64,000 bases of DNA from Squalus acanthias (taxonomy: Eukaryota). The notes below the pieces were generated by a model. It searched no databases. It was not told the origin of the DNA and saw nothing but the letters and a program-made list of their open reading frames with translations. The stretch lies in the NCBI GenBank assembly GCA_030390025.1, contig CM059432.1:2418001-2482000 (forward strand), written 5' to 3'. Made by a program: the position numbers and the translations under genes. This document shows, piece by piece, positions 27,117-63,573 of the stretch (position 1 is its first letter; each line of letters opens with the position of its first letter).

Positions 27117-27154
27117 TCACAAGCTTTCGGAGCTGCTGCCCCTTCGTCAGGTGA
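27117..27154 (-). ncRNA. Minimal hammerhead ribozyme (family A terminal repeat)
   Basis: UCAC-CUGACGA-A-GGGGC(AGCA)GCUCC-GAAAG-CUU-GUGA. Confidence 0.8.
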
Positions 27155-28060
27155 AGTGAAGGAATACAAATCGGCACAGCATATATAGACAGAGAACAAT
27201 GCATGTGCAGCGTACAATGTCAGACGACTACATTTAATCCTTCTGACTGCCTTTCGTCACACCTCGGCAGAGAAACAATCAGGTCAGCCAGGAAGGCACC
27301 ACATCAAAGACATAGCAAGATACAACTGAGACAATGAGGTGGGGTCACAGGGGGTCTAATGTGTCAAATGCTGCAGTATGTATGGAAAACCATAAACTTT
27401 AACATTTTTACTTTTTTTTTACTGGAAATCATATCTGTGAACAAGCCAACGACGACTCGAGTCTGGATGACTCTACGTCATGTAGCGTGACATGAACCCT
27501 AGATCCCGGTTGAGGCCGTCTTCATGGGCGCGGAACTTGGCTATCAGTTTCTGCTCGATGATTTTGCGTTGTCGTGTGTCTCGAAGGCCGCCTTGGAGAA
27601 CGCTTACCCGCAGATCCGAGGCTGAATGTCCTTGACTGCTGAAGTGTTCCCCGACTGGGAGGGAACACTCCTGCCTGGCGATTGTTGCGCGGTGTCCGTT
27701 CATACGTTGTCTCAGTGTCTGCATGGTCTCACCGATGTACCATGCTCTGGGGCATCCTTTCCTGCAACAAATCAGGTAGACAACGTTGGCTGAGTCACAT
27801 GAGTATGTACCATGTACCTGGTGGGTAGTGTCCTCACGTGTGATGATGGTATCTGTGTTGATGATCTGGCATGTCTTGCAGAGGTTGCCGTGGCAGGGTT
27901 GTGTGGTGTCATGGTCGCTGTTATCCTGAAAGCTGGGTAATTTGCTGCGAACGATGGTACTTCTGAGGTTAGGCAGCTGAGGGTAGGCTGCGACACCACA
28001 GACTTCTTACAGAAACTCAGCACCCACGGATCAGTTGAACCAGGAACACTCCTCGCCACG

Positions 28061-29431
28061 ATGGACGTATCGGCACTCTACACCAGTATCCCCCACGATG
28101 ACGGCATCGCTGCGACAGCCTCAGTACTCAACACCAACAACAGCCAATCTCCAGACGCCATCCTACAACTCATCCACTTCATCCTTGACCACAATGTCTT
28201 CACCTTCGACAACCATTTTTTTACCCAAACACACGGAACAGCCATGGGGACCAAATTCGCACCCCAATACGCCAACATCTTCATGCACAAGTTCGAGCAA
28301 GACTTCTTCGCTGCACAGGACCTCCAGCCAACGCTGTACACCAGATACATCGACAACATTTTCTACCTTTGGACCCACGGTGAAGGATCACTGAAAAGAC
28401 TACACGATAACATCAACAAGTTCCATCCCACCATCAAACTCACCATGGACTACTCCTCAGAATCGGTTTCATTCCTGGACACACGAATCTCCATCAAAGA
28501 CGGACACCTCAGCACTTCACTCAACCACAAGCCCACGGACAACCTCACGATGCTTCACTTCTCCAGCTACCACCCTAACCACGTTAAAGAAGCCATCCCC
28601 TATGGACAAGCCCTGCGAATACACAGGATCTGCTCAGACGAGGAGGAACGCGATGGACACCTACGGACGCTGAAAAACGTCCTCGTAAGAATGAGATATG
28701 ACGCTCGACTCATCGATCGACAGTTCCGACGGGCCACAGCGAAAAACCGCATAGACCTCCTCAGAAGGCGAACACGGGACACAACCAACAGGGTACCCTA
28801 CGTCGTCCAGTACTTCCCCGGAGCGGAGAAACTACGCCATGTTCTTCGCAGCCTTCAACATGTCATCGATGACGACGAACACCTCGCTAAGGCCATCCCC
28901 ACGCCTCCACTACTCGCCTTCAAACAGCTGCCTAACCTCAGAAGTACCATCGTTTGCAGCAAATTACCCAGCTTTCAGGATAACAGCGACCACGACACCA
29001 CACAACCCTGCCACGGCAACCTCTGCAAGACATGCCAGATCATCAATACAGATACCATCATCACACGTGAGGACACTACCCACCAGGTACATGGTACATA
29101 CTCATGTGACTCGGCCAACGTTGTCTACCTGATTCGTTGCAGGAAAGGATGCCCCAGAGCATGGTACATCGGCGAGACCAGGCAGACACTGAGACAACGT
29201 ATGAACGGACACCGCGCAACAATCGCCAGGCAGGAGTGTTCCCTCCCAGTCGGGGAGCACTTCAGCAGTCAAGGACATTCAGCCTCGGATCTGCGGGTAA
29301 GCGTTCTCCAAGGCGGCCTTCGAGACACACGACAACGCAAAATCATCGAGCAGAAACTGATAGCCAAGTTCCGCACTCATGAGGACGGCCTCAACCAGGA
29401 TCTAGGGTTCATGTCATGCTACATGACATAG
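28061..29431 (+). CDS. Penelope-like RT + Cys linker + GIY-YIG endonuclease (N-truncated; RT YIDD changed to YIDN)
   Basis: MDVSALYTSIP, GTAMGTKFAPQYAN, RYIDNIF, PCHGNLCKTC, VVYLIRC..WYIGET..RMNGH, GLN. Confidence 0.9.
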   Translation: MDVSALYTSIPHDDGIAATASVLNTNNSQSPDAILQLIHFILDHNVFTFDNHFFTQTHGTAMGTKFAPQYANIFMHKFEQDFFAAQDLQPTLYTRYIDNIFYLWTHGEGSLKRLHDNINKFHPTIKLTMDYSSESVSFLDTRISIKDGHLSTSLNHKPTDNLTMLHFSSYHPNHVKEAIPYGQALRIHRICSDEEERDGHLRTLKNVLVRMRYDARLIDRQFRRATAKNRIDLLRRRTRDTTNRVPYVVQYFPGAEKLRHVLRSLQHVIDDDEHLAKAIPTPPLLAFKQLPNLRSTIVCSKLPSFQDNSDHDTTQPCHGNLCKTCQIINTDTIITREDTTHQVHGTYSCDSANVVYLIRCRKGCPRAWYIGETRQTLRQRMNGHRATIARQECSLPVGEHFSSQGHSASDLRVSVLQGGLRDTRQRKIIEQKLIAKFRTHEDGLNQDLGFMSCYMT

Positions 29432-29743
29432 AGTCATCCAGACTCGAGTCGTCGTTGGCTTGTTCACAGATATGATTTCCAGTAAAAAAAAGTAAAAATT
29501 TTAAAGTTTATGGTTTTCCATACAGACTGCAGCATTTGACACATTAGACCCCCTGTGACCTCATTGTCTCAGTTGTATCTTGCTATGTCTTTGATGTGGT
29601 GCCTTCCTGGCTGACCTGATTGTTTCTCTGCCGAGGTGTGACGAAAGGCAGTCAGAAGGATTAAATGTAGTCGTCTGACATTGTACGCTACACATGCATT
29701 GTTCTCTGTCTATATATGCTTTGTCGATTCGTATTCCTTTACT

Positions 29744-29781
29744 TCACCTGACGAAGGAGCAGCCGCTCCGAAAGCTTGTGA
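29744..29781 (+). ncRNA. Minimal hammerhead ribozyme (family A terminal repeat)
   Basis: UCAC-CUGACGA-A-GGAGC(AGCC)GCUCC-GAAAG-CUU-GUGA; stems I and II pair; palindromic AAGCUU stem III. Confidence 0.82.
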
Positions 29782-30627
29782 TTTCAAATAAAACTGTTGG
29801 ACTATAACCTGGTGTTGTGCGACTTCTCACTTTTATAGAATATAAGAGCAGGGAAGTTATGCTTGAACTGTATAAAACACTAGTTAGGGCACAGCTAGAA
29901 TACTGCGTACAGTTCTGGTCACCACATTACAGGAAAGATGTGATTGCACTAGAGAGGGTACAGAGGAGATTTACAAGGATGTTGCCAGGACTGGAGAATT
30001 TTAGCTATGAGGAAAGATTGGATTGGCTGGGGTTGTTTCCTTTGGAACAGAGGAGGCCAAGGGGATACTTAATAGAGTGTGTAAAATTATGAGGGGCCTA
30101 GATAGAGTGGATAGGAAGGACCTATTTCCCTTAGCAGAGAGCCCAATAACCAGGGGGCAGAGATTTAAAGTAATTGGTAGAAGGATTAGAGGGGAGTTGA
30201 GGAGAACTTTTTTCACCCAGAGGGTGGTGGGGGTCTGGAACTCACTGCCTGAAAGGGTGGTAGAGGCAGAAACCCTCATCACATTTAAAAAGTACTTGGA
30301 TATGCACTTGAAGTGCCGTAGCCTACAGGGCTACGGACCAAGAGCTGGAAAGTGGGATTAGGCTGGATAGCTCTTTGTCGGCCGGCACAGACACGATGGG
30401 CTGAATGGCCTCCTTCTGTACTGTAAACGTCTATGATTCAATGAACCACACCCAGTGAGGGACAATTCCTTTAGAAGGCAATCGCCAAATTCATATTTCT
30501 CAAATATGTGAGTCCAGCATTCTAGTGCTCAAGCTAGCTCGTAATGCAGTATCAGTCTGACATCTTACAGAATGTTGTATGTAATCTCTGTGTAATTAAC
30601 GACCCTTACTCTCGTTAAGCTGAGTGT

Positions 30628-31060
30628 TTACAACAACAACAACAACTTGCATTTGTATAGCACCTTTAACGTAGTAAAACGTCCCAAGGCGCTTCACAGG
30701 AGCGATTATCAAACAAAATTTGACACCGAGCCACATAAAGAGATATTAGGGCAGATGACCAAAAGCTTTTAGGAGCGTCTTAAAGGAGGAGAGCGAGAGC
30801 GGAGAGGTTTAGGGAGGGAATTCCAGCGTTTAGGGCCCTAGCGAGCTGAAGACACGGCCACCAATGGTGGAGCGATGAAATCGGAGGATGCGCAAGAGGC
30901 CAGAATTGGAGGAGCGCAGAGATCTCAGGAGGGTTGTGGGGCTGGAGGAGATTACAGAGATAGGGAGGGGCGAGGCCCTGGGGAGATTTGTAAACAAGGA
31001 TGAGAATTTTAAAATCGAGGCGTTGCTTAACCGGGAGCCGAGGTAGGTCAGCGAGCACAA
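30628..31060 (-). mobile_element. L2 3' fragment
   Basis: (AAC)n tail; RLDFKILILVYKS. Confidence 0.85.
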
Positions 31061-31699
31061 TTGGTGCAACAATTGGTAAAAGTGCCCAAAAGATGCAAAG
31101 AACAAAGCAAACAAGACAAAGATTCATACGATTAATAAACAAAATCACACTAAATCATATGAAGAACTGCAAAGTACAACCTATTCAACAGGGAGCGGAA
31201 AAGAAAACAGTTCCAGCTGTCTAGATTCTTTTAACAATAATTACAAAAAGATACATTTCACTTTTCTTGACGATTGTAGCAGAGCAGTAATAAACATGTT
31301 TCAGAGTGACTGGACTTGGCAGTAACATCCGTGGTAAATGTCACAATGTAATCTACTCCAGGGCATGATTGTAACAGCACAAAGTAACTCAATAACTTGC
31401 TAACTCGTGTGTGCAATGATTTCCTATTTGGGAATGAAATAAACTTGCTTGCAGAATCAGACACATTCCTGAAACAGCAGAAAAGGACAAAAGATATCAC
31501 AACATTAATCTCTCGCAACAGAAGTCCTCTGTTTCTTTGGGAATGACACCACAGTCAATGTTGATACAACCCCAATAACAAAAATACTTTTACTATAAAG
31601 CTGTCCCAATGGAACGCTTGAACATCTTCATCCTAGATTAATCGGATCTGGATTTAGCTCGAGTGAAATATATGGTACAGACCTCTTACATTCGAGTCT

Positions 31700-32000: not shown

Positions 32001-32162
32001 CTACTATGTTTGTGCAAAAGTGTAAGTAGTGCATTTCAGGCTGGAACGGTAACAATGATATTGTAAACATGAACAGGTGTAACAGTCTGTTGCCTCCAGC
32101 TAACAGTGGATGCTGATCTCCTACCTTGAATTCGCCATATTCACGGACTATCTGGTCATTTA

Positions 32163-33665: not shown

Positions 33666-33880
33666 GATCTGAAACAATTGTAACAAACCTTAAACTTGTT
33701 GGCAACTGATATTAATTAAAAAGGAAAATGCAAATGCTGAAAATATGAATACAAAATAGATCAATCAGCATCTCAGGAAAAAACAGTAGTATGATGATTT
33801 GGTTCTAATGAGGGTTAATAAAAACTGAAAATGCTGGAAACACTCAGCAGGTCAGGCAGCATCTGTGGAGAGTGAAACAG

Positions 33881-33917
33881 AGTTAACGTTTCAGGTCAAT
33901 GACCCTTCGTCAGAACT
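33881..33917 (-). ncRNA. Minimal hammerhead ribozyme (family B) in a solo terminal-repeat fragment (33820-33917)
   Basis: AGUU-CUGACGA-A-GGGUC(AUU)GACCU-GAAAC-GUU-AACU. Confidence 0.8.
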
Positions 33918-34036
33918 CTAATGAGGGTTACCACCCAAAACTTCACTCAGAACATTAGTTCCATAAAACTAACGTTTTATTTCTACAAAAAAAAAAGGTG
34001 AATGCATTTTCCATGCAAGATAAACTGTAAACTATA

Positions 34037-35434: not shown

Positions 35435-35555
35435 TGCTTTGGCGATTCTGTATCTTTTTACTTCACCCGACGAAGGAGTAGTAAGCTCCGAAAGCTTGTG
35501 ATTTAAAATAAAACTGTTGGACTATAACCTGGTGTTGTGCGACCTCTCAATTTTG
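35435..35555 (+). mobile_element. 121-bp Penelope terminal-repeat insertion containing a hammerhead motif (35463-35501)
   Basis: Matches 29717-29834; perfect 12-bp duplication TCTATTTATGAA (35423-35434, 35556-35567); core reads CCGACGA..GAAAGCTT. Confidence 0.88.
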
Positions 35556-37519
35556 TCTATTTATGAAGCCCAGGATCCCGTAAGCTTGTTTAACCGCGAT
35601 CTCAACCTGCCCTGCCACCTTCAACGATTTGTACACATACACTCCCAGGTGTCTCTGTTCATGCACCCCCTTTAGGATTGTACCCTCTAGTTTATATTGC
35701 CTCTCCTCGTTCTTCCTACCAAAATGTATCACTTCACACTTTTCTGCCTTAAATTTCATCTGCCATGTGTCTGCCCATTCCACCAGCCTGTCTATGTCCT
35801 CTTGAAGTCTATCACTATCCTCCTCACTGTTCACTATACTTCCAAGCTTTGTGTCATCTGCAAATTTTGAAATTGTGCCCTGTACACCCACATCCAAGTC
35901 ATTAATATATATCAAGAAAAGCAGTGGTCTTAGAACTGACCCCTAGGGAACACCACTGTATACCTTCCTCCAGTCCGAAAAACAACCGTTCACCACTACT
36001 CTCTGTTTCCTATCACTTAGCCAATTCTGTATCCATGCTGCCACTGTCCCTTTTATTCCATGGGCTTCAACTTTGCTGGCAAGCCTATTATGTGGCACTT
36101 TATCAAACACCTTTTGGAAGTCCATGTACACCACATCAACCGCATTGCCCTCATCAACCCTCTCTGTTACCTCATCAAAAAACTCAATCAAGTTAGTTAA
36201 ACACGATTTGCCTTTAACAAATCCATGCTGGCTTTCCTTAATTAATCCACACTTGTTCAAGTGACTGTTAATTTTGTCCCGGATTATAGTTTCTAAAAGC
36301 TTCTCCACTACCGAGGTTAAATTGACTGGCCTGTAGTTGCTGGGTTTATCCTTACACCCTTTTTGAACAAGGGTGTAACATTTGCAATTCTCCAGTCCTC
36401 TGACACCACCCCGGTATCTAAGGAGGATTGGAAGATTATGGCCAGTACCTCCGCAATTTCCATCTTTACTTCTTTCAGCATCCTCGGATGCATCCCATCC
36501 GGTCCTGGTGACTTATCTACTTTAAGTACAGCCAGACTTTCTAGTATCTCCTCTTTATCAATTTTTATACCATTCAGCATCTTCGTCCTTCGTAAAGACA
36601 GATGCAAAGTACTCATTTAGTACCTCAGCCATGCCCTTTGCCTCCATGTGTAGGTCTCCATTTTGGTCCCTAATCGGCCCCAGCCCTCATCTTACTACCC
36701 GTTTACTATTTATATGCCTATAGAAGACTTTTGGATTCCCTTTTATGTTAGCTGTCATTCTATTCTCATACCCTCGCTTTGCCCCTCTTATTTTCTTTTC
36801 ACTTCCCCTCTGAACTTTTTCTATATTCAGCCTGGTTCACACTTGTATTCTCAACCTGACATCTTTCTGCTTCATCTTACTCTCTATCTCTTTCGTCATC
36901 CAGGGAGCTCTGTCTTTGGTTGCCCTACCTTTCCCCCTCGTGGGAATGTACCTAGGCTCTACCTGAACCATCTCCTCTTTAAAGGCAGCCCATTGTTCCA
37001 TTACAGTTTTGCCTGACGATCTTTGATTCCAATTTACCTGGGCCAGATCCATTCTCAACCCACTGAAATTGGCCTTCCTCCAATTAAGTATTTTTACTCT
37101 AGATTGCTCCCTATCCTTTTCCATAGCTAATCTAAACCTTATGATACTATGATCACTGTTCCCTAAATGTTCCCCTACTGACACTTGCTCCACTTGACCC
37201 ACCTCATTCCCCACAACCAGATCCAGCAATGCCTCTTTCCTCATTGGGCTGGAAGCATACTGATCAAGTTCTCCTGAACACACTTCAGAAATTCTTCCCC
37301 CTCTCTGCCCTTTACACTATTACTATCCAAGTCTACATTAGGATAGTTGAAGTTCCCCGTTTTCACTACTCTATAGTTCTTGAACCTCTCTGTAATTTCC
37401 CTACAAATTTGCTCCTCTATATCCTTCCCACTAGTTGGTGGTCTATAGAATACACCTAGTAGTGTAATGTCACCTCTATTGTTTCTCAACTCTAACCAAA
37501 CAGATTCTGTCCTTGACCC

Positions 37520-41287: not shown

Positions 41288-41505
41288 GAAGCTCAACGCA
41301 AGCTCAAGGAACAGCACCTCAGCTTCCCATTGGGCACTTTACAACCTACCGGCCTCAACACTGAGCTCAATAACTTTAGATCATAACCAACGCTCCCATT
41401 TTCTCGGACATCAGTTGGTCATTAGATCGATGGCTCTGCTGTAACCATTTACACCTCTTCAAGACCTATCTTTTGTTTCTTTAGTTGATCCATTACCACC
41501 TCCTT
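41288..41505 (+). mobile_element. Penelope family B fragment (GIY-YIG C-terminus + 3' UTR)
   Basis: EAQRKLKEQHL..GTLQPTGLN.E.NNFRS*, matching the end of ORF 49172-50707. Confidence 0.7.
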
Positions 41506-41509
41506 AGGT

Positions 41510-42180
41510 CATGCACCATCTGGTACAGCAAGTAATTAGGAAGGCAAATGGAATGTTGGCCTTTATTGCATGGCGGATGGAGTATAAAAGTAGGGAAGTC
41601 TTGCTACAACTGTACAGGGCGTTGGTGAGACCACACCTGGAGTACTGCGTACAGTTTTGGATATACTTGCTTTGGAGGCAGTTCAGAGAAGGTTCACTAG
41701 GTTGATTCCTGAGATGAGGGGGTTGTCTTATGAAGAAAGGTTGAGCAGGTTGGGCCTTTACTCATTGGAGTTTAGAAGAATGAGAGGGGATCTTATTGAA
41801 ACATATAAGATTCTGAGGGGGCTCGACAGGGTGGATGCTGAGAGGATGTTTCCCCTCGTGGGGGAATCTAGAACTAGGGGGCATAATTTCAGAATAAGGG
41901 GTCGCCCATTTAAAACGGAGATGAGGAGGAATTTCTTCTCTCGGAGGGTCGTGAATCTTTGGAATTCTCTACCCCAGAGAGCTGTGGAGGCGGAGTCATT
42001 GAATATATTCAAGGTGGAGATAGACAGATGTTTGAAAAACAGGGGAGTCGAGGGTTATGGGGAGTGGGCAGGAAAGTGGAGTTCAGGCCAAGATCAGATC
42101 AGCCATGATCTTATTGAATGGCGGAGCAGGCTCGAGGGGCCAAATGGCCTACTCCTGCTCTATTTCTTATGTTCTTATGG
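41510..42180 (+). mobile_element. CR1 3' fragment
   Basis: [26 protein letters not shown]; (TTCTTATG)n. Confidence 0.88.
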
Positions 42181-42547
42181 TTTATGCTCCGCACGAGCCT
42201 CCTCCCACACATCTTCATCTCACCCTAGCAACATATCCTTCTATTCCTTATGTTCTTATATCATCCCTTTTGTCATTTCATCACTGCCTGCCCTCCACCC
42301 CATCACAGACCTTCCACTTTGGACAAGAACCCTGATGGCACTTCAGCATCAGAAGAGGCAGCCAGGAACATTAAATAGGGCGGAAAGCACCCGTTGTTCT
42401 CACCGCCTCACAATTAGCAAATCTACCATTAACATAGCTCCCATCATCAGACATGACTCCATGGAGCCAACTTGACCCCACAGAGGCCCTGCTAACCTCT
42501 ACCCAAGGAGAAGTCACCAGCTGGCCATTAGACAACAGACAACAGAT

Positions 42548-43160
42548 AACCTCCTCCAGCCCCTACAACCCTCCCTATCTCTGTAACCTCCTCCAGCCCT
42601 ACAACCCTCCCTATCTCTGTAACCTCCTCCAGCCCCTACAACCCTCCCTATCTCTGTAACCTCCTCCAACCCTACAACCCTCCCTATCTCTGTAACCTCC
42701 TCCAGCCCCTACAACTCTCCCTATCTCTGTAACCTCCTCCAGCCCTACAACCCTCCCTATCTCTGTAACCTCCTCCAGCCCTACAACCCTCCCTATCTCT
42801 GTAACCTCCTCCAACCCCTACAACCCTCCCTATCTCTGTAACCTCCTCCAGCCCCTACAACCCTCCCTATCTCTGTAACCTCCTCCAGCCCTACAACCCT
42901 CCCTATCTCTTCTCTGTACCTCCTCCAGCCCTACAACCCTCCCTATCTCTGTAACCTCCTCCAGCCCTACAACCCTCCATATCTCTGTAACTTCCTCCAG
43001 CCCTACAACCCTCCCTATCTCTGTAACCTCCTCCAGCCCTACAACCCTCCCTATCTCTGTAACATCCTCCAGCCCTACAACCCTCCCTCTATCTGTAACC
43101 TCCTCCAGCCCTACAACTCTCCTATCTCTGTAACCTCCTCCAGCCCTACAACCCTCCAAA
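42548..43160. repeat. 36/37-bp minisatellite derived from L2 sequence (about 16 copies)
   Basis: aacctcctccagccctacaaccctccctatctctgt repeated, then runs into ordinary L2 sequence (43160-43210). Confidence 0.92.
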
Positions 43161-43552
43161 ATCTCTGCGCTCCTCCAATTCTGGCCTCTTGCAAATCCTC
43201 GATTTCCTTCGAATTTCTGCCTACCCATCAGGATAAAAGCCTCTCCTTTAAATAGCAGCTGCTGTCCTTTAAGAACAGGAAATCTGCCCAGCTCATGGAA
43301 TAAAGTAAGATCCTAATGTCACATCCAATTCAGGCTGGGAGCTTGATCCGGATAAATCTTAATCCCGGATGATTGGGCTAGGTCGGTCTTGTCCAAAATG
43401 TGTTTCATTTAGTCGTCCTGTCTCAAATTAATTCTGAGTGGGTTCGCTATAGATATGAAAAGACATTGGAGTAAAGAAGATCTTTACCTTTATTACTGAA
43501 TTGAATTGAATTATTTTCTAAGCATCACTGAGGTTAGCTTTTTGAAAGCAAA

Positions 43553-47060: not shown

Positions 47061-47379
47061 TTGGCGACTTATAAATCACTTCTCAGAAATGGGCTGGAAG
47101 TGTAGCCTGTACCAAGTCGCACACTAGCAGCGCCAATCACTCATTCAGGCTTAAGAATGTAACCTATTTAGCGGACTGTCACTCTTAAAAATAAACACAG
47201 CCAGTATCTTTAAATAGGTTTGCAATCTATGCCACTCAACATCTTCCTGAAGTGGGTGGATGGGAGGCTGCTTTGGCTGTTTGTAATGCTCGAGAGAAAA
47301 AAAAATTATCCTTGCAGAGATAGAACATTAGGGATTTATTAGGAACATTAATTTTTTTTCTCTCTCTTCTTTCCTCACA

Positions 47380-47682
47380 TGGTAGCTGTTAATGTTGCTG
47401 CCATCATCATCCACACATCATCCAGAGCCATCTTTTGTTTCTTAACTTGTCCCATTACCATCTCCTTTTGCCTTGCACCATCATCCCTTTTGTCAGTCAA
47501 TCTCTCCTGCCTTCCATCCTATCACAGACCTTCCCTTTGTTCTTTCCTCCCCTCCTCCCTGCCCCTGCTTAAAAATCTCTCCTCTGACGAAGGGTTCGAC
47601 TCGAAACGTTAACTCTGTTTCTCTCTCTCCTCGATGCTGCCTGACCTGCTGAGTGTTCCCAGCACTTTCTGTTGTTATTTCA
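47380..47682 (+). mobile_element. Penelope family B 3' UTR/terminal repeat with hammerhead core at 47584-47610
   Basis: CUGACGA-A-GGGU(UCG)ACUC-GAAAC-GUU; 5' arm of stem I disrupted. Confidence 0.7.
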
Positions 47683-48847
47683 GAACATTAGGGATTCTGA
47701 GAGTCATGAGCACTGGATGAATCTGTTGTTAGATCAAGTAAGGTTACAAAGGCTGGCATTTGAAAATAGGGGACCAAACAAGGGACAATTCGAAGCTTAA
47801 AAGTAGAAGGATGGTCTAAGGTGGGCTGTTGTGAACACTCCTGCAGTTTGTAGCTTGGATTTTTCCGATCACTGGCATTAAAGTAACAGCGATTGGAAAA
47901 TAGGGAATTATATGGCAAAGGAACTTCAATATACCTGTAGATAAATGTGTGGTGGTGCATTTTGGTAGAAGGAACAAGGAGGCCACACACTCATTGGAAA
48001 ATAAGAGTCTAAATGGGGTAGAGGAGCAAAGGGGTCCAGGGGATACAGGTACACAAATCACTAAAAGTAGCGACACAAGTTAACAAGGCCATAAAAATGC
48101 AAACAAAGCACTGGGGTTCATTTCTAGAGGAATAGAATTGAAAAATAAGAAAGTTATGTTAGACATATAGAACCTTGGTTCAACCATACTTGGAGTACTA
48201 TGCACAGTTTTGGTCTTCAGATTAAAAAAAGGATATAGAGGCACTGGAGATAGTGCCATAAAGATTTCCAAGGATGATACTAGACCTGAGAGGTTATAAC
48301 TATCAGGAAAGATTGAACAGGCTGGGGCATATTTCTCTAGAAAGGTGAAGGCTGAGGGGTGACCTAATAAAGGTCTTTAAGATTCTGAAAGGGTTTGATA
48401 GGGTAGACGTAGAGAAGATATTTCCACTTGTAGGGAGGCCAAAACTAGTGATAATGACCAGATAGTCTGGTTTTAGTGATGTTGGTTGAGCGAAAAATAG
48501 TGGCCAGGACACCAGGGAGAACTTAATTGAGGTGTATAAAATTATGAGGGGCCTAGATAGAGTGGATAGGAAGGACCTATTTCCCTTAGCAGAGGGGTCA
48601 ATAACCAGGGGGTAAAGATTTAAAGTAATTGGTAGAAGGATTAGAGGGGATTTGAGGAGAACTTTTTTCACCCAGAGGGTGGTGGGGGTCTGGAACTCAC
48701 TGCCTGAAAGGGTGGTAGAGGCAGAAACCCTCATCACATTTAAAAAGTACGATAGCAAAATACTGCGGATGCTGGAAAATTGAAACAACAACAGAAAACG
48801 CTGGAAAAACTCAGCAGGCCAGGCAACATCCGTGGAGAGAGAAACAG

Positions 48848-48883
48848 AGTTAACGTTTCAGGTCGAAACCCTTCGTCAGAACT
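48848..48883 (-). ncRNA. Minimal hammerhead ribozyme (family B terminal repeat)
   Basis: AGUU-CUGACGA-A-GGGU(UUCG)ACCU-GAAAC-GUU-AACU. Confidence 0.82.
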
Positions 48884-49171
48884 GAGAAAAAAGCAGGAAA
48901 TGAAACAGATAAAAAAGCAAGGGGGAGGCTGGGGGGAGGAATAAAAGAACAAAAGGGGTGGTCTATGGTCAGTAGAGACATTAAGAGATGCTCAAGGCGA
49001 GACGAGATGGTAATAGGACAGGTTAAGAAACAAAAGGTGGCTCAGAAGTGTGAAGTGTGAAATGCTGGCAGAATGAGAGACAGTTGCCGTGTGGGAGAGA
49101 GAGAAAAAAAAGGGAAAAGGCACAAACCAAAAGTGTGGATAAAATATATATATATGTGGTAGGGGCCGAGG

Positions 49172-50680
49172 TTATGATCTGAAATTGTTGAACTCGATAT
49201 TGAGTCCAGAAGGCTGTAAAGTGCCTAATCGGAAGATGAGGTGCTGTTCCTCGAGCTTACGCTGAGCTTCCGTGGAACAATGCAAGAGGCCGAGGTCGGC
49301 TAGGTCTGAGTGGGCGTGGAGAGGTGAATTAAAATGACAGGCGACCGGAAGCTCGGGGTCACCCTTACGGACTGAACGGAGGTGTTCCGCAAAGCGGTCA
49401 CCCAATCTGCGTTTGGTCTCCCCAATATAGAGGAGACCACATCGTGAGCAGCGAATACAGTATACTAAATTGCAAGAAGTACAAGTAAATCGCTGTTTCA
49501 CCTGGAAGGGGTGTTTGGGGCCCTGGAGAGTGGGAAGGGGGGAGGTATAAGGGCATGTGTTGCATCTCCTGCGCTTGCACGGGAAGGTGCCGGGCAAGGG
49601 GGTAGGGGTGCTGGGGGTGATAGAGGAGTGGACTAGGGTGTCTCGGAGGGAGCGGTCCCTGTGGAATGCTGAAAGGGGAGGTGAGGGGAAGATACGTTTG
49701 GTGGTGGGATCACGTTGGAGGTGGCGGAAATGGCGAAGGATGATCCGTTGAATGTGGAGGCTGGTGGGGTGAAAGGTGAGGACAAGGGGAACTCTACCGT
49801 GGTTCCGGGAGGGAGGGGCCGGGGTGAGGGCAGAAGTGTGGGAGATGGAACGGACACGGTCGAGGGCCGTGTCGACCACGGTAGAGGGGAATCCTCGGTT
49901 GAGGAAAAAGGAAGACATGTCGGAAGCACTGGTATGGAAGGTGGCATCGTCGGAGCAGATGCGGTGGAGACGGAGAAACTGGGAGAAGGGAATAGAGTCC
50001 TTACAGGAGGCGGGGTGGGAGGAAGTGTAGTCCAGGTAGCTATGGGAGTCAGTGGGCTTATAGTGAATGTTGGTCAATAACCTATCCCCAGAGATGGAGA
50101 CGGAGAAGTCGAGGAAGGGAAGGGAGGAGTCGGAGATGGACCATGTGAAGGTGAGGGAAGGGTGGAAATTGAAGGCAAAGTGAATGAAATTGTCTAGTTC
50201 AGGGCGAGAGCAGGAAACAGCACCGATACAGTCGTCAATGTACCGGAAAAAGAGGTGAGGGAGGGGACCCGAGTAGGACTGGAACAAAGAGTGTTCCACA
50301 TATCCCACGAAAAGGCAGGCATAGCTAGGACCCATGCGGGTACCCATAGCAACACCTTTGATTTGGAGGAAATGAGTGGAGTCAAAGGAGAAGTTGTTCA
50401 ATGTGAGAACAAGTTCAGCCAGGTGGAGGAGGGTGGAGGTGGATGGGGTCTGGTTGGGCCTTTGTTCAAGGAAGAAGCGGAGCGCCCTCAGGCCATCCTG
50501 GTGGGGGATGGAGGTGTAGAGGGATTGTACGTCCATAGTGAAAAGGAGGCGGTTGGGGCCAGGAAACTGGAAACTGTTAAAGTGGCGGAGGGCATCAGAG
50601 GAGTCGCGGATGTAGGTGGGAAGAGACTGGACAAGGGGAGAAGAAATAGAGTCGAGATAGGAAGAGATAAGTTCCGTGGG
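49172..50680 (-). CDS. Penelope-like RT + Cys linker + GIY-YIG endonuclease (N-truncated, no internal stops)
   Basis: YIRDSSD, MDVQSLYTSIP, GVAMGTRMGPSYA, RYIDDC, PCKRRRCNTC, LVYCIRC..LYIGETKR..RFAEH, GLN. Confidence 0.92.
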   Translation of the reverse strand, partial: PTELISSYLDSISSPLVQSLPTYIRDSSDALRHFNSFQFPGPNRLLFTMDVQSLYTSIPHQDGLRALRFFLEQRPNQTPSTSTLLHLAELVLTLNNFSFDSTHFLQIKGVAMGTRMGPSYACLFVGYVEHSLFQSYSGPLPHLFFRYIDDCIGAVSCSRPELDNFIHFAFNFHPSLTFTWSISDSSLPFLDFSVSISGDRLLTNIHYKPTDSHSYLDYTSSHPASCKDSIPFSQFLRLHRICSDDATFHTSASDMSSFFLNRGFPSTVVDTALDRVRSISHTSALTPAPPSRNHGRVPLVLTFHPTSLHIQRIILRHFRHLQRDPTTKRIFPSPPLSAFHRDRSLRDTLVHSSITPSTPTPLPGTFPCKRRRCNTCPYTSPLPTLQGPKHPFQVKQRFTCTSCNLVYCIRCSRCGLLYIGETKRRLGDRFAEHLRSVRKGDPELPVACHFNSPLHAHSDLADLGLLHCSTEAQRKLEEQHLIFRLGTLQPSGLNIEFNNFRS

Positions 50681-50844
50681 GCAAAAAAAGTACTTGGATA
50701 TGCACAAGAAGTGTCGTAACCTGCAGGGCTACGGACCAAGAGCTGGAAAGTGGGATTAGGCCAGATAGCTCTTTGTCGGCCGGCACAGACACGATGGGCC
50801 GAATGGCCTCCTTCTGTGCCGTAAATTTCTACGATTCTATGATT

Positions 50845-50988
50845 CCCCCCTTTCCCTTCCTCTGCACCTGCTTAAAACCTCTAACTTTTTCCAGTTCTGA
50901 CAAAAGGTCACAGACCTGAAACGTTAACCCTCTTTCTCTCTCCGCAGATGCTGCCTGACCTGCTGAGTGTTTCCAGCGTATATTTCAA
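50845..50988 (+). mobile_element. Solo family B terminal repeat with mutated hammerhead (50893-50928)
   Basis: Core reads CUGACAA instead of CUGACGA; GAAACGUUAAC retained. Confidence 0.7.
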
Positions 50989-51590: not shown

Positions 51591-51959
51591 GATGTTGTGA
51601 GTTGCTGCAGTGCAGCGTGTAAACAGTACAGACGACATCCACGGTACGCCGGGGATGAAAGTTTATTTACTTTCCAATGACAGTGAACAGTTTAAAAGTA
51701 ATACATTGCACTCTGGATGTAATCATAGTTTAGATCTTACAGACACAATGATACCCCTGTCACTGCTTCCTTCTCAAACTCGAAGCGTTCACATGTGTCC
51801 GTATGTTGATTGTTTTTGATGTGAGGACTATATTCCTGTCAGTTCCGAGAGCACCAGGTACCAACGGGTTGCTGATACGGTGCTTTCAAATTTAAATTAA
51901 ATGCAAAGGCAAAACACTGCGGATGCTGGAAATAAAATAAAATGAAATAAAAACAGAAA

Positions 51960-54214
51960 AAAGAAAGAGAGACTTGCATTTCTCCAGCGCCTTTCACAAC
52001 CTCAGGACATCCCAAAGCGCTTTACAGCCAATGAATTACTTTTTGAAGTGTAATCACTGTTGTAATGTAGGATAAATTTGCGCACAGCAAGCTCCCACAG
52101 CCAGCAATGTGATAATGACCAGATAATCTGTTTTTGTGATGTTGATTGAGGGATAAATCTTCTTCTTAGGCAGTCCCTCGGAACCGAGGATGACTTGCTT
52201 CCACATTAAAAATGAGTTCTCAGGTGACTGATGAGTCCAATGCGGGACCTACAGTCTCTGTCACAGGTGGGGCAGACGGTGGTTGAAGGGACGGGTGGGT
52301 GGGGTTCTTGGGTTGACGTGCGCTCCTTCCGCTGTTTGCGCTTGGCTTCCGCTTGCTCCTGGCGAAGAGACTCGAGGTGTTCGGCGCCTTCCCGGATGCT
52401 TCTCCTCCACTTTGTGCGGTCTTGGGCCAGGGATTCCCAGGTGTCGGTGGGGATGTTACACTTTTTCAAGGAGGCTTTGAGGGTGTCCTTGAAGCGTTTC
52501 CTCTGCCCACCTGGGGCTCTCTTGCCGTGCCGGAGCTCCGAGTAGAGTGCTTGTTTTGGGAGTCTCGTATCGGGCATGCGGACAATGTGACCCGTCCATC
52601 GGAGCTGATCGAGCGTGGTCAAAGCTTCGATGCTGAGGATGTTGGCCTGAGCAAGAACACTGACGTTGGTGTGCCTATCCTGCCAATGGATTTGCAGGAT
52701 CTTGCGGAGGCAACATTGGTGGTACCTCTCCAGTGCTTTGAGGTGCCTGCTGTACATGGTCCATGTCTCTGAGGCATACAGCAGGGTGGGTATCACTGCT
52801 GCTCTGTAGACCATGAGCTTAGTGCCGGGTTTGAGGTCCTGGTCTTCAAACACTCTCTTCCTCAGGCGACCGAAGGCTGCACTGGCACACTGAAGGCGGT
52901 GTTGGACTTCGTCGTCGACGTCTGCCCTTGTTGACAGTAGGCTCCCGAGGTATGGAAAGTGGTCCACGTTGTCCAAGGCCTTGTCGTGGATTTTGATAAT
53001 CGGGGGGGCAGTACTGTATGGCGGGGACAGGTTGGTAGAGGACCTTTGTCTTACGGATGTTTAGTGTAAGGCCCATGCTCTCGTACGCTTCAGTGAAGGT
53101 GTTGACGATGGTTTGGAGTTCGACCTCCGAGTGAGCGCAGACGCAAGCGTCGTCTGCATACTGTAATTCGATGACAGAGGTTGGGACGACCTTGGATCTG
53201 GACTGGATGTGACGGAGGTTGAACAGTTTCCCGTTTGTTCTGTAAATTAGCTCCACTCCAGCGGGGAGCTTACTGAGGGTGAGATGGAGCATTGCAGCAA
53301 GGAAGATCGAGAAGAGCGTTGGTGCGATGACACAGCCTTGCTTGACCCCGGTTCGTACATGAATTGGGTCTGTGGTGGAACCGTTGGTCAGGATCACGGC
53401 TTGCATGTTGTCGTGAAGCAGGCGGAGGATGGTGACAAATCTTTGAGGGCAGCCGAATTTGAGGAGGACACTCCATAATCTCTCACGGTTGACAGTGTCG
53501 AAGGCCTTTGTGAGATCAAAGAAGGCCATGTACAGCAGTTGGTGCTGTTCCCTGCATTTCTCTTGTAATTGACGCGCGGTGAAGATCATGTCCATTGTGC
53601 CCCTTAGTGGGCAGAATCCGCATTGCGACGCTGGGAGGAGCTCTTCGGCCACTGGGAGAAGGCGATTGAGGAGGATTCTTGCGATGACTTTCCCTGTGGC
53701 AGACAGGGATAAATATTGGCTCCAGGACACCAGGGAGAACTCCCCTGCTCTGCTTCTGAATAGTGCCATGGGATCTTTCACGTCCACCTGAGAGAGCAGA
53801 CGGGGCCTCGGTTTAACATTTCATCCAAAAAAGATGGAACCTCTGACAGTGCAACGCTCCCTCAGTACTGCCCCCTCCGACAGTGCAGCGCTCCCTCAGT
53901 ACTGCCCCCTCCGACAGTGCAGCGCTCCCTCAGTACTGCCCCCTCCGACAGTGCAGCGCTCCCTCAGTACTGCCCCCTCCAACAGTGCGGCACTCCCTCA
54001 GTACTGCCCCTCCGACAGTGCGGCGCTCCCTCAGTACTGCCCCTCCGACAGTGCGGCGCTCCCTCAGTACTGCCCCTCCGACAGTGCGGTGCTCCCTCAA
54101 TACTGCACTGGGAGTGTCAGCCTAGATTTTTGTGCTCAAGTCTCTGGAGTGGGACTTTGAACCCACAACCTTCTGACTCAGAGGCGAGTGTGCTACCCAT
54201 TGAGCCACAGCTGA
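51960..54214 (-). mobile_element. DeuSINE split by RTE insertion, with 33/34-bp minisatellite (53842-54103)
   Basis: SINE halves 51960-52158 and 53705-54214 join across the RTE. Confidence 0.8.
52159..53704 (-). mobile_element. RTE-clade LINE, 5'-truncated (RT + C-terminal C2H2 finger), frameshift in G-run near 53005
   Basis: GKVIARILLNRL, QCGF..RGTMDMIF, FFDLTKAFDTV, GVKQGCVIAPTLF, LQYADD, CPTCDRDCRSRIGLISH; (AAG)n tail; 10-bp duplication AGGGATAAAT (52149-52158, 53705-53714). Confidence 0.92.
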
Positions 54215-54271
54215 CCCTTATATGTTGGAAATACTCAGCAGGTCAGGCAGCATCTGTGGAAAGAGACACAG

Positions 54272-54308
54272 AGTTAACGTTTCAGGTCGGTGACCCTTCG
54301 TCAGAACT
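54272..54308 (-). ncRNA. Minimal hammerhead ribozyme (family B) in a solo fragment (54225-54308)
   Basis: AGUU-CUGACGA-A-GGGUC(ACC)GACCU-GAAAC-GUU-AACU. Confidence 0.8.
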
Positions 54309-54350
54309 GCAAACCTAAATGCATCTCATTTATTTGAGATGTTATACTTT

Positions 54351-57865: not shown

Positions 57866-58596
57866 TTTCTAGCTGATTCTGGCAATAACTGAGGCCATGA
57901 AAGGAGTTGTATAAATGCAAGTCTTTGTTTCTTTCTCAAGTCCTATAATACAACAATTTTACAATACTGTACTTCAAACCATTCTTGAAGGGGAATGTCA
58001 ATCATGTCACTAGGGGTGCAGGTGCATCAGTAAATCTGGATCTAACTTCATCTCACCATGGGACCACTGACTATAACTTTGGGCTCTCTATTGCCTCCAC
58101 CCTATCATCCGTTTACAACCATGCCGATGTAACCTGAGTTTCCTCTGTGTCTATTTGCTGCCACTCCATACCCGAGCCCATGACTTCAATCTCCCCCTTT
58201 TCTCCCCGCGGTTCTCTTTACCCATCTTGGGTCCTTCTCCTCTTTCTCTTCCCCATCCCCTCACCCGGTAATGCTGTCTTTCAATTCTCCCCTCTCGGGG
58301 ACCTCCATTACTCTTATGTAGCCAGAGAAATCTCCGCAATCGCTCCCGCACCGTTACCTCTGGAGTCCCCCCAAGGATCTATCCTCGGCCCCCTCCTATT
58401 TCTCATCTACATGCTGCTCCTCGGCGACATCATCCGAAGACATGACGACAGGTTCCACATGTACGCTGACGACACTTACATGGCTGAAAAAGCAAAATTT
58501 GCAGGGCTATGGGGAAAAAGCAAGGGCAGTTGGGACTAATTGGATAGCTCTTTCAAAGAGCTGGCACAGGCACGATGGACCAACTGATCTCCCTAG

Positions 58597-58605: not shown

Positions 58606-58641
<36 letters not shown>

Positions 58642-59058: not shown

Positions 59059-59446
59059 CTGTGCGGTATGATTCTATGACGCCCAGCTCTACCTCTCCAC
59101 CACCTCTCTCGACCCCTTCACTGCCTCTGTAAGTTTAAGATTAGCCCGATAGTCTCTGTGGGTGTGTTGGGACCCCTAGAATGAAAGGACAGGAGCGCAG
59201 TAAGAGTAAGTTTCATTCAAAAGTTCACACTCTAAATAAGTCAAGTCTTACCACTTAAATATCCGAAACAACTTTAAGTTTAACCTGTCTCTACACGATA
59301 TGAAGTCTCCATGATGCTTCTGAGAAATCTCACATTAAAAGGAAGCATGCACAACACCAGCAGTACATGAGCTGAGCGACGACTGACTAACGGATCTAGG
59401 AAGGGATATCACCCTGTATCTGCATTCTTTCGGAAGGGAAACTGAT

Positions 59447-60213
59447 GGGTTAGAAATTCGACTCCAGAGTGCCCGATTTCTCAGTGTTACGGGTGCCATT
59501 TTGACTCCAAAATGGCGTCTGCGCCGTGCACACACATTTCTAGTGCTGGCCGCGCCAGACGGCGTTTTGGTAAGGGCCAAAGAAGAGGCGTCGTTTACCC
59601 ATGTCTGAAGCAGGCGTGAGGCTATTAACGTATTGAACTAAGGGGCCTAACGCTGCTTCTGCTCCCACTTGCAAATTTGGTTGGCGTCTGAGGCAGGCAG
59701 CGCCAGCGCTGATCGCCCCCGGGAAAAGCAACGCCAGACAGCAGCGAATTTTTAAAAAAAGGTAAGTGCTTACCATAATCACCTGCCGCGCCCTGTCCCG
59801 GGATCTCCGACCTCCAGGCCTCACCCGATCTCCAGGCCTCCCGATCTCCCTCCGACCCTGACCTCCTAGCGATCCCCGACATCACTGCCGACCCCCCAAC
59901 AATACTGCAGGCGCCCCCAGCCCAACGCCGCCGCCCCCCCCCCCCCGCCACTCCCCTCGCCGATCTTCTTACCCGACCCCCGACAGCACCTCCGATCACA
60001 GACACCGAGGCCCACCCGTTCCTCCTCCAGACCCACGCTGCGCAACCCACTCACTTTCCTGGAAATTTGGAGCTTCAACCTGCGCGGGCACCGTCTACGT
60101 GATAAATAAGGTCCGAGGCCCAAAATCCAACCGTTCCTCCCACCTCCACATTTGAGCGTGGGCACTCTGCCGGCAAGGCGCCCAAAAATTGGACGCCACT
60201 GAATTTCTAGCCC
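59447..60213. mobile_element. MITE, Harbinger-type (TIR GGGYTAGAAATTC)
   Basis: GGGTTAGAAATTC..GAATTTCTAGCCC (12/13), similar to the autonomous Harbinger TIR; CpG-rich interior. Confidence 0.78.
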
Positions 60214-60721
60214 ATGGTATTCAAAACGTGCGGGCGTGACATGATCCGTAAAAGCAATGGACTCAAAAGCTGATTTTTTTTTTTTAAAAGCCTTCCTAAG
60301 GAAGATAAAAGCAACAAGCAAATTACTGATGTCATATTACTGAGAGGAACATGTCTCCAGTGCATTCGGTGTATGTGCCAAACAAACTGGATGGCAGATG
60401 TCCCACAGGAGCTCAATTGGACCCAGGTGTGGATTGCACTAGGCAGCAACTCAGCTACTATTCCTTGTTACCTGAATCCTTTGAGTTAGAAGACAACTGG
60501 GTTCTTTTCCAGAGGGAGGAAGGAGTAGAAGGAAATGTCAGCGATATGAAGCCAACACAACAAACATCAACAAGGTGAAAAACACAAATGCTCACGAACC
60601 TAGGACAAAGCTCAATAGACGGGGGGGATGAGTCATTCATCCTTGAATTAAGAGGAGATAGTTTACCTGTTTATGAACTGAAGGTGCATTTTTGGTTAAT
60701 TTATGAATGGAATCAGATTTA

Positions 60722-61232
60722 TAGGAGTGTGATGGAATACTCTCCACTTGCCTGGATGAGTGCAGCTCCAACAACACTCGAGAAGCTCGACACCATCCAG
60801 GACAAAGCAGCCCGCTTCATTGGCACCCCGTCCACCACCTTAAACATTCACTCCCTCCACCACGGCGCACCGTGGCTGCAGTGTGTACCATCTACAAGAT
60901 GCACTGCAGCAACTCGCCAAGGCTGCTTCGACAGCACCTCCCAAACCGGCGACCTCTTCCACCTAGAAGGACAAGGGCAGCAGGCGCATGGGAACACCAC
61001 CACCTCCAAGTCATACACCATCCTGACTTGGAACTATATCGGCCGTTCCTTCATCGTCACTGGGCCAAAATCCTGGAACTCCCTCCCTAACAGCACTGTG
61101 GGAGCACCTTCACTACACGGACTGCAGCGGTTCAAGAAGGCGGCTCACCACCACCGTCTCGAGGGCGACTAGGGATGGGCAATAAATGCCGGCCTTGCCA
61201 GCGACACACACATTCTGTGAATGATTTTTTTT
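60722..61232 (+). mobile_element. CR1-group LINE (second family) 3' end
   Basis: RSVMEYSPLAWMSAAPTTLEKLDTIQDKAA. Confidence 0.78.
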
Positions 61233-61250
61233 AATAAAAGCTAAAATATC

Positions 61251-62980
61251 GGCCCCGTATTTTCCGATCCCTACGGGTGTGTACGAGCTGGGTACCCACC
61301 CGCAGAAATCTCACAAGTGCCGGTTTCAGGCGTGCGAAGCGCATGCGCTGAAAACCGGCGCGTCGATCTGTCAAGAATCCTCTTGACAGATCGCACGCCT
61401 GCCCAAGAGAAGGGCCTCTGCGGGGGGGGAGAGTTCCACTTTCTGCAGAACCTCCGCCCGCTGAAAACCCTTAGAAAATCTTACGCCTGGTAAAAGCATG
61501 CGTAAGGCGTAAGGCCTGCTTTTACCAGCATAAGAGTTTAAAAAAAGTAAAATTTTACTCATTTATAATTTAAAAATACTTTTAAAAATGGTAAGTTTAT
61601 TTTTAGCCCTGTAAAAAACTTTAAATATTTTTTCAAAAAATTAAATTTTTGTTTAAAATATTTAATTTAATGCAATTTTAACACATTTTAAAAATGGGAT
61701 GTTTTTTTAAAAATGTATTGACTGTTTTGATGTCTTTTTTCAGTGATCCCCGTTCATACTTTTTTCAGAAGAAGCCGCAGTGCTTTGCGAAATCACAGCC
61801 TCGTGTTCAGAGGCTGGTGGAAGCTGCAAGGCTACTTGGCCACGTCGCAGTGGGGCCTGATGCCGGGACGAACGCTACCAGGAGGGCCTTACACGGTGAG
61901 CTTTGCGCTGAGCAAATAAGCATTAGTCCCTAGCGGCAATTTTCAGTCCTGCCCACGCCACCATTTTCGGCAGGCCGTTAACGCCGGACTGCGGTGGCGC
62001 GGCAGGTGTTTAGCGATCTGGATATTTAAGGCCTTGGTTCCGAAGACGCTCCTTAAAACCTCCCTCTCGACCAAGCTTCGGCTCACCTGGCCCGATATCT
62101 CCTTATGTGTCTCGGTGTCAAGTTTTTGTTTGATAATCGCTCCTGTGAAGCGCCCTGGGGATGTTTTACTAGGTTAAAGACGCTGAATAAATACAAGTTG
62201 TCGTTGTATTGGCCCGTATTTTCCGATCGGAGGATTCCCGCGTGCGGAGGCCTCCGATCTGGAAAAAATCTACGCCCTTACCCGAGGGCTCCCGAGGTCC
62301 GGACACTTCCGCTCCTGGGCCTCGCCAACTCGAAATGCGCAGAGGCCCACGTATCCCAGGGGGCGCAGGCGGTTCGCAAGCGTCCCTGGGATCACGTGGG
62401 CCATGGGGAGCCAATGGGAGAAGGGAATCTCCCTTCACACTTTTGAGAGATCTCTCAGCTTAGACCCGTCAAAAGTATGAATGGAAATCACTCCAAAAAC
62501 ACATCAAAACATTAAGTACATTTTAAAAAATCACGTTTTTAAAATGAGTTAAAATTACATTAAATTAAATATTTTTAACCAAAAATTTTATTTTTTGAAA
62601 AAATAATTCAAGTTTTTTACAAGACTAAAAATAAACTTACCTTTTTTTAAAGTATTTTTAAATTATAAATGAGTGGAAATTTTTTTAAAACTTTTTTTTT
62701 AAACTCTTATGCTGGTAAAAGCAGGCCTTGTGCCCGCTTTTACCAGGCATAAGATTTTCTAAGGGTTTTCAGCGGGCAGAGGCTCTGCAGAAAGTGGAAC
62801 TCTCCGCCCGCAGAGGCCCTTCTCCAGGGCAGGCGGAGGATCTATCAAGAGGATTCTTGCCAGATCGGAAGTGCCGGTTTTCAGCGCATGCGCTTCGCAC
62901 GCCTGAAACCGGCACTTGCGAGGTCCCTACGGGTGGGTACACAGCTCGTACACACCCGTAGGGATCGGAAAATACGGGGC
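61251..62980. mobile_element. Two related MITE-like elements in inverted orientation (about 61251-62033 and 62211-62980) separated by an L2 tail
   Basis: 61252-61762 is the reverse complement of about 62470-62980; terminal motif GCCC(C)GTATTTTCCGATC at 61252, 62212 and (reversed) 62963-62980. Confidence 0.78.
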
Positions 62981-63364
62981 AATATGTCCTCAGTCAACCT
63001 GCTGATAATTTAGGAGAAATATATTCCACAGTAAACGAAATACCTGGCTGGAGTTCTTTGCATACCAGTTATGAAAAGATGTTTCTTCTAAAGCATGTTT
63101 AGCTCATTATGGGTTATTTTTGTGCTGCACTTACAACTTCAGTTTGTACTGTTTAATATTTGCTGAATGTGTTGTGTATTAAATAATCGTAATTACTGTT
63201 GTAAAAATCTACCAATCTGCAGCAAGTGTGGTAGTCTAGCCTGATACTCCGCTAAATCCAAGTGCACAGATTTTTCCAATTAGCTGTAAACATCACTCTT
63301 TGGGTCACACAAACTCCACAAAGGGCAGATTATTAACAAACCAATACATCTCCCGGATACAGAG

Positions 63365-63573
63365 CAGAGGCAAAATGCTGCGGATGCTGGAAATCTGAAA
63401 TACAATGAGAAAACGCTGGAAGCACTCAGCAGGTCAGGCAGCATCGGTGGAGAGAGAAACAGAGTTAACGTTTCAGGTCGGTTCAGGTTCTGACGGCAGG
63501 TCACCGACCTGAAACGTGAACTCTGTTTCTCTCTCTACCGATGCTGCCTGACCGGCTGAGTTTTTCCAGCATT
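63365..63573. mobile_element. Inverted pair of Penelope family B terminal repeats with degenerate hammerheads
   Basis: 63365-63482 (-) and 63487-63573 (+); + core reads CUGACGG..GAAACGUG. Confidence 0.75.

Follow-up and report, generated by a model that had tools for sequence, protein, structure and literature searches.

A 64,000-nucleotide stretch of the Squalus acanthias genome (GenBank assembly GCA_030390025.1, contig CM059432.1, positions 2,418,001 to 2,482,000 of the forward strand; the whole of it is called the window below) contains a set of hammerhead ribozyme motifs associated with Penelope-like elements (PLEs). We consider it very probable that these are minimal type I hammerheads in the 3′ pseudo-long terminal repeat (pLTR) ends of two Penelope-like families with a Neptune/Nematis-type domain layout, and that the 5′-truncated copies seen here are likely passive carriers of the motif and likely inert. 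An earlier note, made from the letters alone, had proposed nine motifs with a CUGAnGA..GAAA core and paired stems I and II. A sequence check of the window found nine out of nine, at the coordinates and on the strands given below, but only five of the nine are complete and four are damaged. The features of family A, including the open reading frame (ORF) with its reverse transcriptase (RT) and the 3′ untranslated region (UTR), are as follows.

27026..27979, minus strand: inverted, 5′-truncated arm with the end of the endonuclease region, the 3′ UTR and a hammerhead; 916 bp of it are 96.8% identical to 28925-29834
27117..27154, minus strand: complete hammerhead; stem I of 4 bp, stem II of 5 bp, CUU, N17 at 27121
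27941..29431, plus strand: Penelope ORF, 5′-truncated, with homology from about 27989; RT, C-x4-C-x2-C linker and GIY-YIG-type region with CCHH residues
29744..29781, plus strand: complete hammerhead; predicted cut after 29777, element end at 29834, 57 nt beyond the cut
35435..35555, plus strand: 121-bp solo insert flanked by a 12-bp target duplication; its hammerhead, at 35463-35501, is damaged by U4C

Family B is represented by a longer series, one copy of which lies in a fragment of a long interspersed nuclear element (LINE).

33818..33916, minus strand: solo insert of 99 bp, starting at stem I of the complete hammerhead 33881-33917
47337..47681, plus strand: family B-type insert, 345 bp long and flanked by a 15-bp target duplication; the core at 47584-47610 is intact, the 5′ strand of stem I lost (one of four pairs left)
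48751..50684, minus strand: 5′-truncated Penelope copy that lies in a LINE 3′ fragment; length 1934 bp, target duplication 9 bp
48848..48883, minus strand: complete hammerhead; GUU, N17 at 48852, G10.1·U11.1, preceded by a pyrimidine tract and CAG
49172..50684 (open frame 49172-50728), minus strand: Penelope ORF; RT (YIDD), C-x4-C-x2-C linker, GIY-YIG with CCHH
50843..50980, plus strand: end fragment, an insertion separate from 48751-50684; hammerhead 50893-50928 damaged by G8A and a stem I mismatch, with A10.1-U11.1
54219..54313, minus strand: end fragment whose start precedes stem I by about 4 nt; the hammerhead, at 54272-54308, is complete, and another repeat lies within the tail
63370..63486, minus strand: tenth motif, most of the 5′ core absent, long tail; inverted partner of 63487
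63487..63578, plus strand: end fragment folding back on the partial copy; hammerhead 63487-63522 damaged by A9G, H17G and the change of the extra A to C

A strict descriptor (stem I of at least 3 bp, CUGANGA, 0-1 extra nucleotides, stem II of 3-8 bp, GAAA, self-complementary NN, and UH) gave five matches in the window, with C3 at 27150(-), 29748(+), 33913(-), 48879(-) and 54304(-). The same descriptor had 0 matches in each of 300 local dinucleotide shuffles (1-kb blocks). As shuffling ignores the kinship of copies, this places the motif beyond compositional noise, but the five matches do not amount to five independent confirmations. Further CUGANGA..GAAA matches at 30846, 34186 and 58466 fail the strict descriptor.

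A MAFFT alignment of the nine motifs was out of structural register, and pairs were instead counted from anchors. In structural register, family A reads UCAC CUGACGA A (5-bp stem II) GAAA GC U U GUGA, and family B reads AGUU CUGACGA A (4-5-bp stem II) GAAA CG U U AACU. The two families have a common core, while stem I differs in sequence and yet pairs in both (UCAC/GUGA versus AGUU/AACU), as does stem II. An extra nucleotide precedes stem II in all nine motifs (A in eight, C in 63487), helix III has no loop, and the self-complementary positions 15.2-16.2 are GC in three of three family A motifs and CG in six of six from family B. The extra A after CUGACGA, the AAGCUU or AACGUU palindromes and the CUU or GUU triplets are thus present as first described, and the cut predicted after 29777 is correctly placed by the strict descriptor. 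Pair 10.1-11.1 is G-C in every family A motif but in only one of the six from family B, where the stem II closing pair is G·U in three and A-U in two, mostly not the usual G10.1-C11.1. Such a G·U or A-U closing pair, like U17, is a departure from the optimal hammerhead that would be expected to affect the rate. Without a loop on helix III, a monomer cannot form the A15.1-U16.1 helix, so that the active form is predicted to be a dimer joined by an intermolecular helix of 4 bp; the dimer requirement proposed earlier is likewise a prediction here, drawn from the missing loop and by analogy with the model of Cervera & de la Peña 2014 (PMC4209133).

Four features bore out the assignment to two Penelope families: RT/GIY-YIG ORFs next to the motifs, duplicated target sites, the presence of an inverted arm, and an optional tail. 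The motifs at 27117, 29744 and 48848 sit about 290-315 nt 3′ of Penelope ORF stops, and the remaining copies are 83-92% identical to these three ends. The earlier description of the motifs as mostly detached from any ORF is therefore accurate for six of the nine, but not for these three, which lie directly 3′ of Penelope coding sequence. The family A protein (P0002) matches RVT_1 above the Pfam gathering score (E=3.5e-7), with an RT catalytic motif that reads YIDN in this copy, and its nearest named relatives are shark and ray proteins at up to 90-91% (90% to the shark protein P0123). Residues 324-496 of P0002 are also encoded, at 94% by tblastn, in the inverted arm 27026..27979. The family B protein (P0001) gave E=1.9e-5 for RVT_1 and E=7.5e-4 for GIY-YIG, and is 64-69% identical to the best-scoring shark and ray proteins, its nearest named relatives. 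At only 32% identity to each other, P0001 and P0002 indicate two families. Both ORFs are 5′-truncated relative to longer relatives. When the two were aligned with seven relatives, the linker residues C384, C389 and C392 and the CCHH residues C427, C430, H449 and H465 were invariant across the nine sequences. A C-x(2-5)-C-x2-C linker between RT and endonuclease is described as a mark of Neptune/Nematis as opposed to Penelope/Poseidon elements (Craig et al., bioRxiv 2021.04.23.441226), and the linker and CCHH, rather than a tree, suggest a Neptune/Nematis-type domain layout for both families.

An nhmmer profile search of the window found seven family B and three family A copies and no significant match beyond these. 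The ten motifs correspond to about eight insertions, since 27117 and 29744 share one and 63487 likely shares another with the partial copy that lies head to head with it (~63370-63486); the five complete motifs derive from four insertions. The insertion at 27026-29834 consists of a forward copy and its inverted arm. Of its target of roughly 12 bp, eight bases are duplicated exactly, and a tail of 38 nt (27026-27063) is present on the left, inverted arm only. The sequence at 63370-63578 forms a second fold-back pair, again with a tail on one arm; one insertion, and probably a second, thus has an inverted arm. Inserts with defined ends range from 99 bp to 2.8 kb, and most are flanked by target duplications (14, 12, 15 and 9 bp, plus the 8 exact bp of the hairpin insertion), the 14-bp duplication being that of the 99-bp insert (33804-33817 and 33917-33930). 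Target duplications were sought and not found for the 54272 copy and for the 63-kb hairpin. The 3′ ends that could be fixed lie either about 57-71 nt or 95-101 nt beyond the predicted cut. The copy at 48751..50684 bears the long, tailed end, at about 48754, and the loose ends listed at this position comprise 82 contigs of sequencing run X5 and 11 of run X17.

Some candidate features were discarded. The 50893 motif was considered as an inverted arm of 48751-50684 and rejected, because a separate 9-bp duplication flanks the latter and the two ends match at only 86%; a 7-bp ‘duplication’ around 50893 was at chance level and was dropped. Two metagenome scans for additional copies gave 0 matches each. 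An interrupted family-B-type Penelope remnant at 41288-41521 and 42260-42321(+) comprises an ORF end and pieces of 3′ UTR, with no hammerhead detected, and 51909-51960(-) is a family B fragment consisting of tail without hammerhead. Three of the five insertions with defined ends (27026-29834, 35435-35555 and 48751-50684) lie inside LINE 3′-end fragments, which may merely reflect LINE coverage.

A mechanism that would produce this anatomy can be modelled on the anole element of Frangieh et al. 2024 (PMC11167929). The element endonuclease would nick AT-rich DNA, and the RT would start within the element RNA at one of two sites 3′ of the hammerhead, which would delimit the tail. The RT would then copy through the hammerhead and usually halt early, leaving solo ends. 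Because all copies span the predicted cut, the template RNA would have been either uncleaved or re-ligated; in the anole element, hammerhead mutants inserted normally (PMC11167929). Selection on the motif would act in tandem source elements, where pLTR-ORF-pLTR transcripts would unite two motifs, or a motif and the element protein, for slow cleavage, and inserted copies would thereafter decay through ordinary mutation.

Sequencing runs offer a partial view of how the core varies. No RNA run containing this sequence was listed among 24, which has no bearing on expression, and four of the 24 were used. Three of these, X5, X15 and X17, consist of contigs and give no view of the ends, strand or level of RNA; the only raw-read run, X21, yielded 14 reads, of no use for ends or copy number. 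The X5 variants come from contigs weighted by word depth, few of which aligned over the 5′ half of the hammerhead. Within these, N7 is variable, with C>U at 25% of weighted depth, whereas its CpG partner G8 and the segment G12-H17 have no listed variant at or above 5%; the variant share is 4.7% at U4 and 13% at G10.1. N7 is known as a free core position (PMC2837043). A variable N7 next to a G8 with no such variant is what constraint in source elements would be expected to leave, and we take the pattern as a hint of it. A fall in depth at 48866 was considered as a truncation peak and rejected, as it is caused by the reference's own stem II loop.

Several results weigh against our interpretation. 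The window contains 3′ ends only and no complete tandem pLTR-ORF-pLTR unit; this is expected for truncated copies and makes none of those seen here a likely source element. At the level of profiles, P0002 has no GIY-YIG Pfam match and that of P0001 is below the gathering score, as is its RVT_1 match. An Rfam scan of the window gave 10 matches at E<=1, none of them a hammerhead, and the missing helix III is the probable reason. The excess of core conservation over the flanking repeat, which the earlier note had made a point of refutation, was not significant: in the six full family B copies, 3/72 core positions differ from the majority compared to 24/306 in the tail (one-sided p=0.21). In X5, positions with a variant at or above 5% number 0/12 between G12 and the end of stem I, as against 16/94 in the tail (p=0.12), with some of the tail variants private to the reference. 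This lack of significance is compatible with decay, but it leaves selection on the core statistically unproven. Finally, three of the six full family B copies have their 5′ start no more than about 5 nt from stem I, and it is not obvious that random truncation would yield this.

The missing Rfam match and the non-significant core excess would both fit with motifs that are chance look-alikes within repeats, with no ribozyme ancestry. We give this idea almost no credence, in view of the 300 shuffles without a match, the common core and equal position relative to the ORF end in two families with unrelated stems, and a layout that agrees with the published consensus NNN CUGANGAH G...C GAAAN palindrome NUH (PMC4209133).

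The clustering of 5′ starts at stem I could have another cause, namely that the solo inserts of ~100-120 nt are a non-autonomous family resembling short interspersed nuclear elements (SINEs) or retrozymes, mobilised by the Penelope protein, with an RNA of its own whose 5′ end lies at the hammerhead edge through a transcription start or splice acceptor. The target duplications on the 99-bp and 121-bp inserts are clean, and in 48848 and 50893 a YAG|UUCUGA follows a 70-90% pyrimidine tract, with CAG in both, where the upstream sequence is native and the AG intact. The intron of Drosophila virilis Penelope ends at helix I (PMC4209133), and three X15 contigs depart from the reference exactly at 48881, although it is a guess that X15 is RNA and the consensus agreement is 0.63. 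However, the insert lengths of 99, 121, 345 and 1934 bp form the series expected from 5′ truncation, there is no tandem motif array, with the nearest same-strand copies 3.3 kb apart, and the best-supported X5 loose ends listed (303 contigs at 48866) cross the core and continue upstream in pLTR-like sequence. None of the listed joints leads into 48881, and all numbers are very small. We consider a separate short RNA to be unlikely, and continue to favour truncated Penelope ends.

A related, weak lead arises from the same sequence. At 48881-48885(-) and 50890-50896(+), family B stem I overlaps a pyrimidine tract and CAG resembling a 3′ splice acceptor, and the 50893 copy also has a CTAAC branch-like motif. 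It is conceivable, though we rate it as improbable, that the 5′ strand of family B stem I is a 3′ splice acceptor, as at the D. virilis Penelope intron, and that splicing of very many dispersed shark copies to host exons rebuilds stem I and activates a restrained ribozyme, perhaps only with the Penelope protein. If so, the ribozyme would otherwise be held off by U17, the weak 10.1-11.1 pair and an alternative core helix, and a splice boundary at stem I would account for ~100-bp inserts that begin there.

The earlier note had also raised possible effects on read-through transcripts. In its full form, this would mean that scattered intact copies cut read-through or intronic RNAs of the host, dimerising in cis or in trans or aided by a Penelope protein, and thereby shape the transcriptome. 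There are five complete motifs in the window, three intact family B copies lie on the minus strand, 5.4 and 15.0 kb apart, and the isolated family A motif folds into stems I and II with pair probabilities of about 0.99 in a nearest-neighbour model without tertiary contacts or proteins; the anole PLE hammerhead cleaves with the element protein present (PMC11167929). In the same folding model, however, the fold predicted to be lowest in energy is in no case the active dimer, which lies above two folded monomers by 2.5 kcal/mol for family A and about 10 kcal/mol for family B, whose core favours an alternative helix with its own cleavage strand. With 40-nt flanks, the probability that stem I forms intramolecularly drops to 0.33 or lower in each of the five complete motifs. 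The two intact family A copies are mutually antisense and would anneal (-238 kcal/mol over 137 nt), no same-strand tandem pair is present in the window, and even the closest intact pair of one family on one strand is separated by the 5.4 kb noted above. A scan of 52 of the 126 window ORFs identified no host gene. Published cleavage is weak even for dimers (PMC4209133), only one of nine Xenopus retrozyme dimers cleaved in published work, and in the anole, where cleavage needed the protein, no RNA sequencing reads ended at the cut site (PMC11167929). Given the 5.4-kb spacing, the antisense family A copies, the disfavoured dimer and the non-significant core excess, effects on read-through transcripts are unsupported by these data, and we regard such activity in place as very unlikely compared to passive carriage.

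In terms of abundance, the earlier figure of one motif per ~7 kb is arithmetically right for nine motifs in 64 kb, but it includes broken copies and counts two insertions twice; counting complete motifs only, there are five in 64 kb, or one per 13 kb. About 4,000 motifs are reported in coelacanth and 9,000 in Xenopus (PMC4209133), and the local density would be far above such numbers per genome if the window were representative. In addition, about 55% of DNA run X5 supplies 16,351 contigs that map to a 451-bp family B stretch, mostly to the 3′ half of the hammerhead and the tail. This pile-up fits a very abundant family, but it is not a copy number, and the X5 organism is possibly not this shark.

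Much of what we describe has precedent, as the core, extra nucleotide, palindrome, dispersed singles, opposite-strand pairs and dimer model were already set out by Cervera & de la Peña 2014 (PMC4209133). The minimal hammerhead ribozymes of metazoan PLEs in that work are likewise of type I, with CUGANGA, one extra nucleotide, no helix III loop and palindromic 15.2-16.2, and they share a short helix I, a U-rich upstream sequence, and an occurrence mostly as single dispersed motifs from truncated PLEs or as opposite-strand pairs. The window motifs differ in having a short stem II of 4-5 bp, which family B closes mostly with G·U or A-U; U17 and G·U at 10.1-11.1 do occur in several rows of Fig. S3 of PMC4209133 (G·U in Xenopus 1 and cichlids, both in Latimeria 1), so that the G10.1-C11.1 pair, although highly conserved in this class, is not absolute. 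No chondrichthyan is present among the entries of Table S1 and Fig. S3 of that paper that were available for comparison. The Neptune/Nematis-type PLEs of Craig et al. (bioRxiv 2021.04.23.441226) similarly have an RT followed by a C-terminal GIY-YIG with CCHH and a C-x4-C-x2-C linker, and the PLE architecture described there includes 5′ truncation, an inverted 5′ copy and a one-sided tail of 30-40 bp, as here, whereas the window has no complete element or tandem pLTR. The Poseidon element PAc of Anolis carolinensis (PMC11167929) resembles our copies in its two tail-separated 3′ end points, AT-rich targets and retention of an uncleaved hammerhead. PAc belongs to another clade, lacking the linker finger, and has been assayed, whereas the window motifs are known from sequence; its ORF starts inside the hammerhead, whereas no start codon overlaps the window motifs. 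Animal non-LTR retrozymes (PMC7761336; bioRxiv 10.64898/2026.07.22.740005) also carry type I hammerheads related to PLE pLTRs and occur as monomeric dispersed copies, and were found in the one chondrichthyan sampled (bioRxiv 10.64898/2026.07.22.740005). Retrozymes are, however, tandem repeats with a hammerhead in each unit, whereas the window copies are never tandem and the nearest ones of one family on one strand are spaced by 3.3-15 kb. We found no publication on these two shark families, although the supplements of the 2026 preprint, which lay outside the comparison, may name such families. In short, the two shark families are additions to a motif class described in 2014, with the usual anatomy displayed within one window.

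The surrounding sequence is rich in other repeats, and about 51% of the window is self-repeated. Two convergent Harbinger-type genes, at 1826-3109(+) and 4601-5407(-), encode a DDE_Tnp_4 transposase (E=1.6e-39) and a Myb/SANT protein. Splitting of hammerheads by Harbinger elements was considered and discarded, as the window has no split half-motifs. RT fragments other than Penelope, probably from LINEs, lie at 35547-36512(-), 52846-53820(-) and 58138-58539(+). A minisatellite of about 36-bp units at 42547-43211 derives from a dispersed repeat, 61252-61763 and 62471-62980 form a 512-bp inverted repeat pair (87%), and 23126-25258 is a low-complexity region that is open in three minus-strand frames (586-710 aa) with no Pfam match. 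The Penelope inverted pair at 63408-63577 and head-to-head LINE ends at 9163-9256 form fold-back hairpins that give spurious matches to Rfam microRNA families, and are possible sources of double-stranded RNA; all of the top microRNA-like Rfam matches inspected were on inverted repeats or low-complexity sequence. No transfer RNA genes were found in the window.

What PLE minimal hammerheads do in vivo is still described as open (PMC7761336), and dispersed copies alone do not settle it. A genome with very many copies would permit a statistical test, which could compare decay in core and tail, look for strand bias within introns and ask whether RNAs end at the cut. Were it true that solo copies cleave or splice host transcripts, this would imply a large unrecognised RNA-processing load in cartilaginous fishes.

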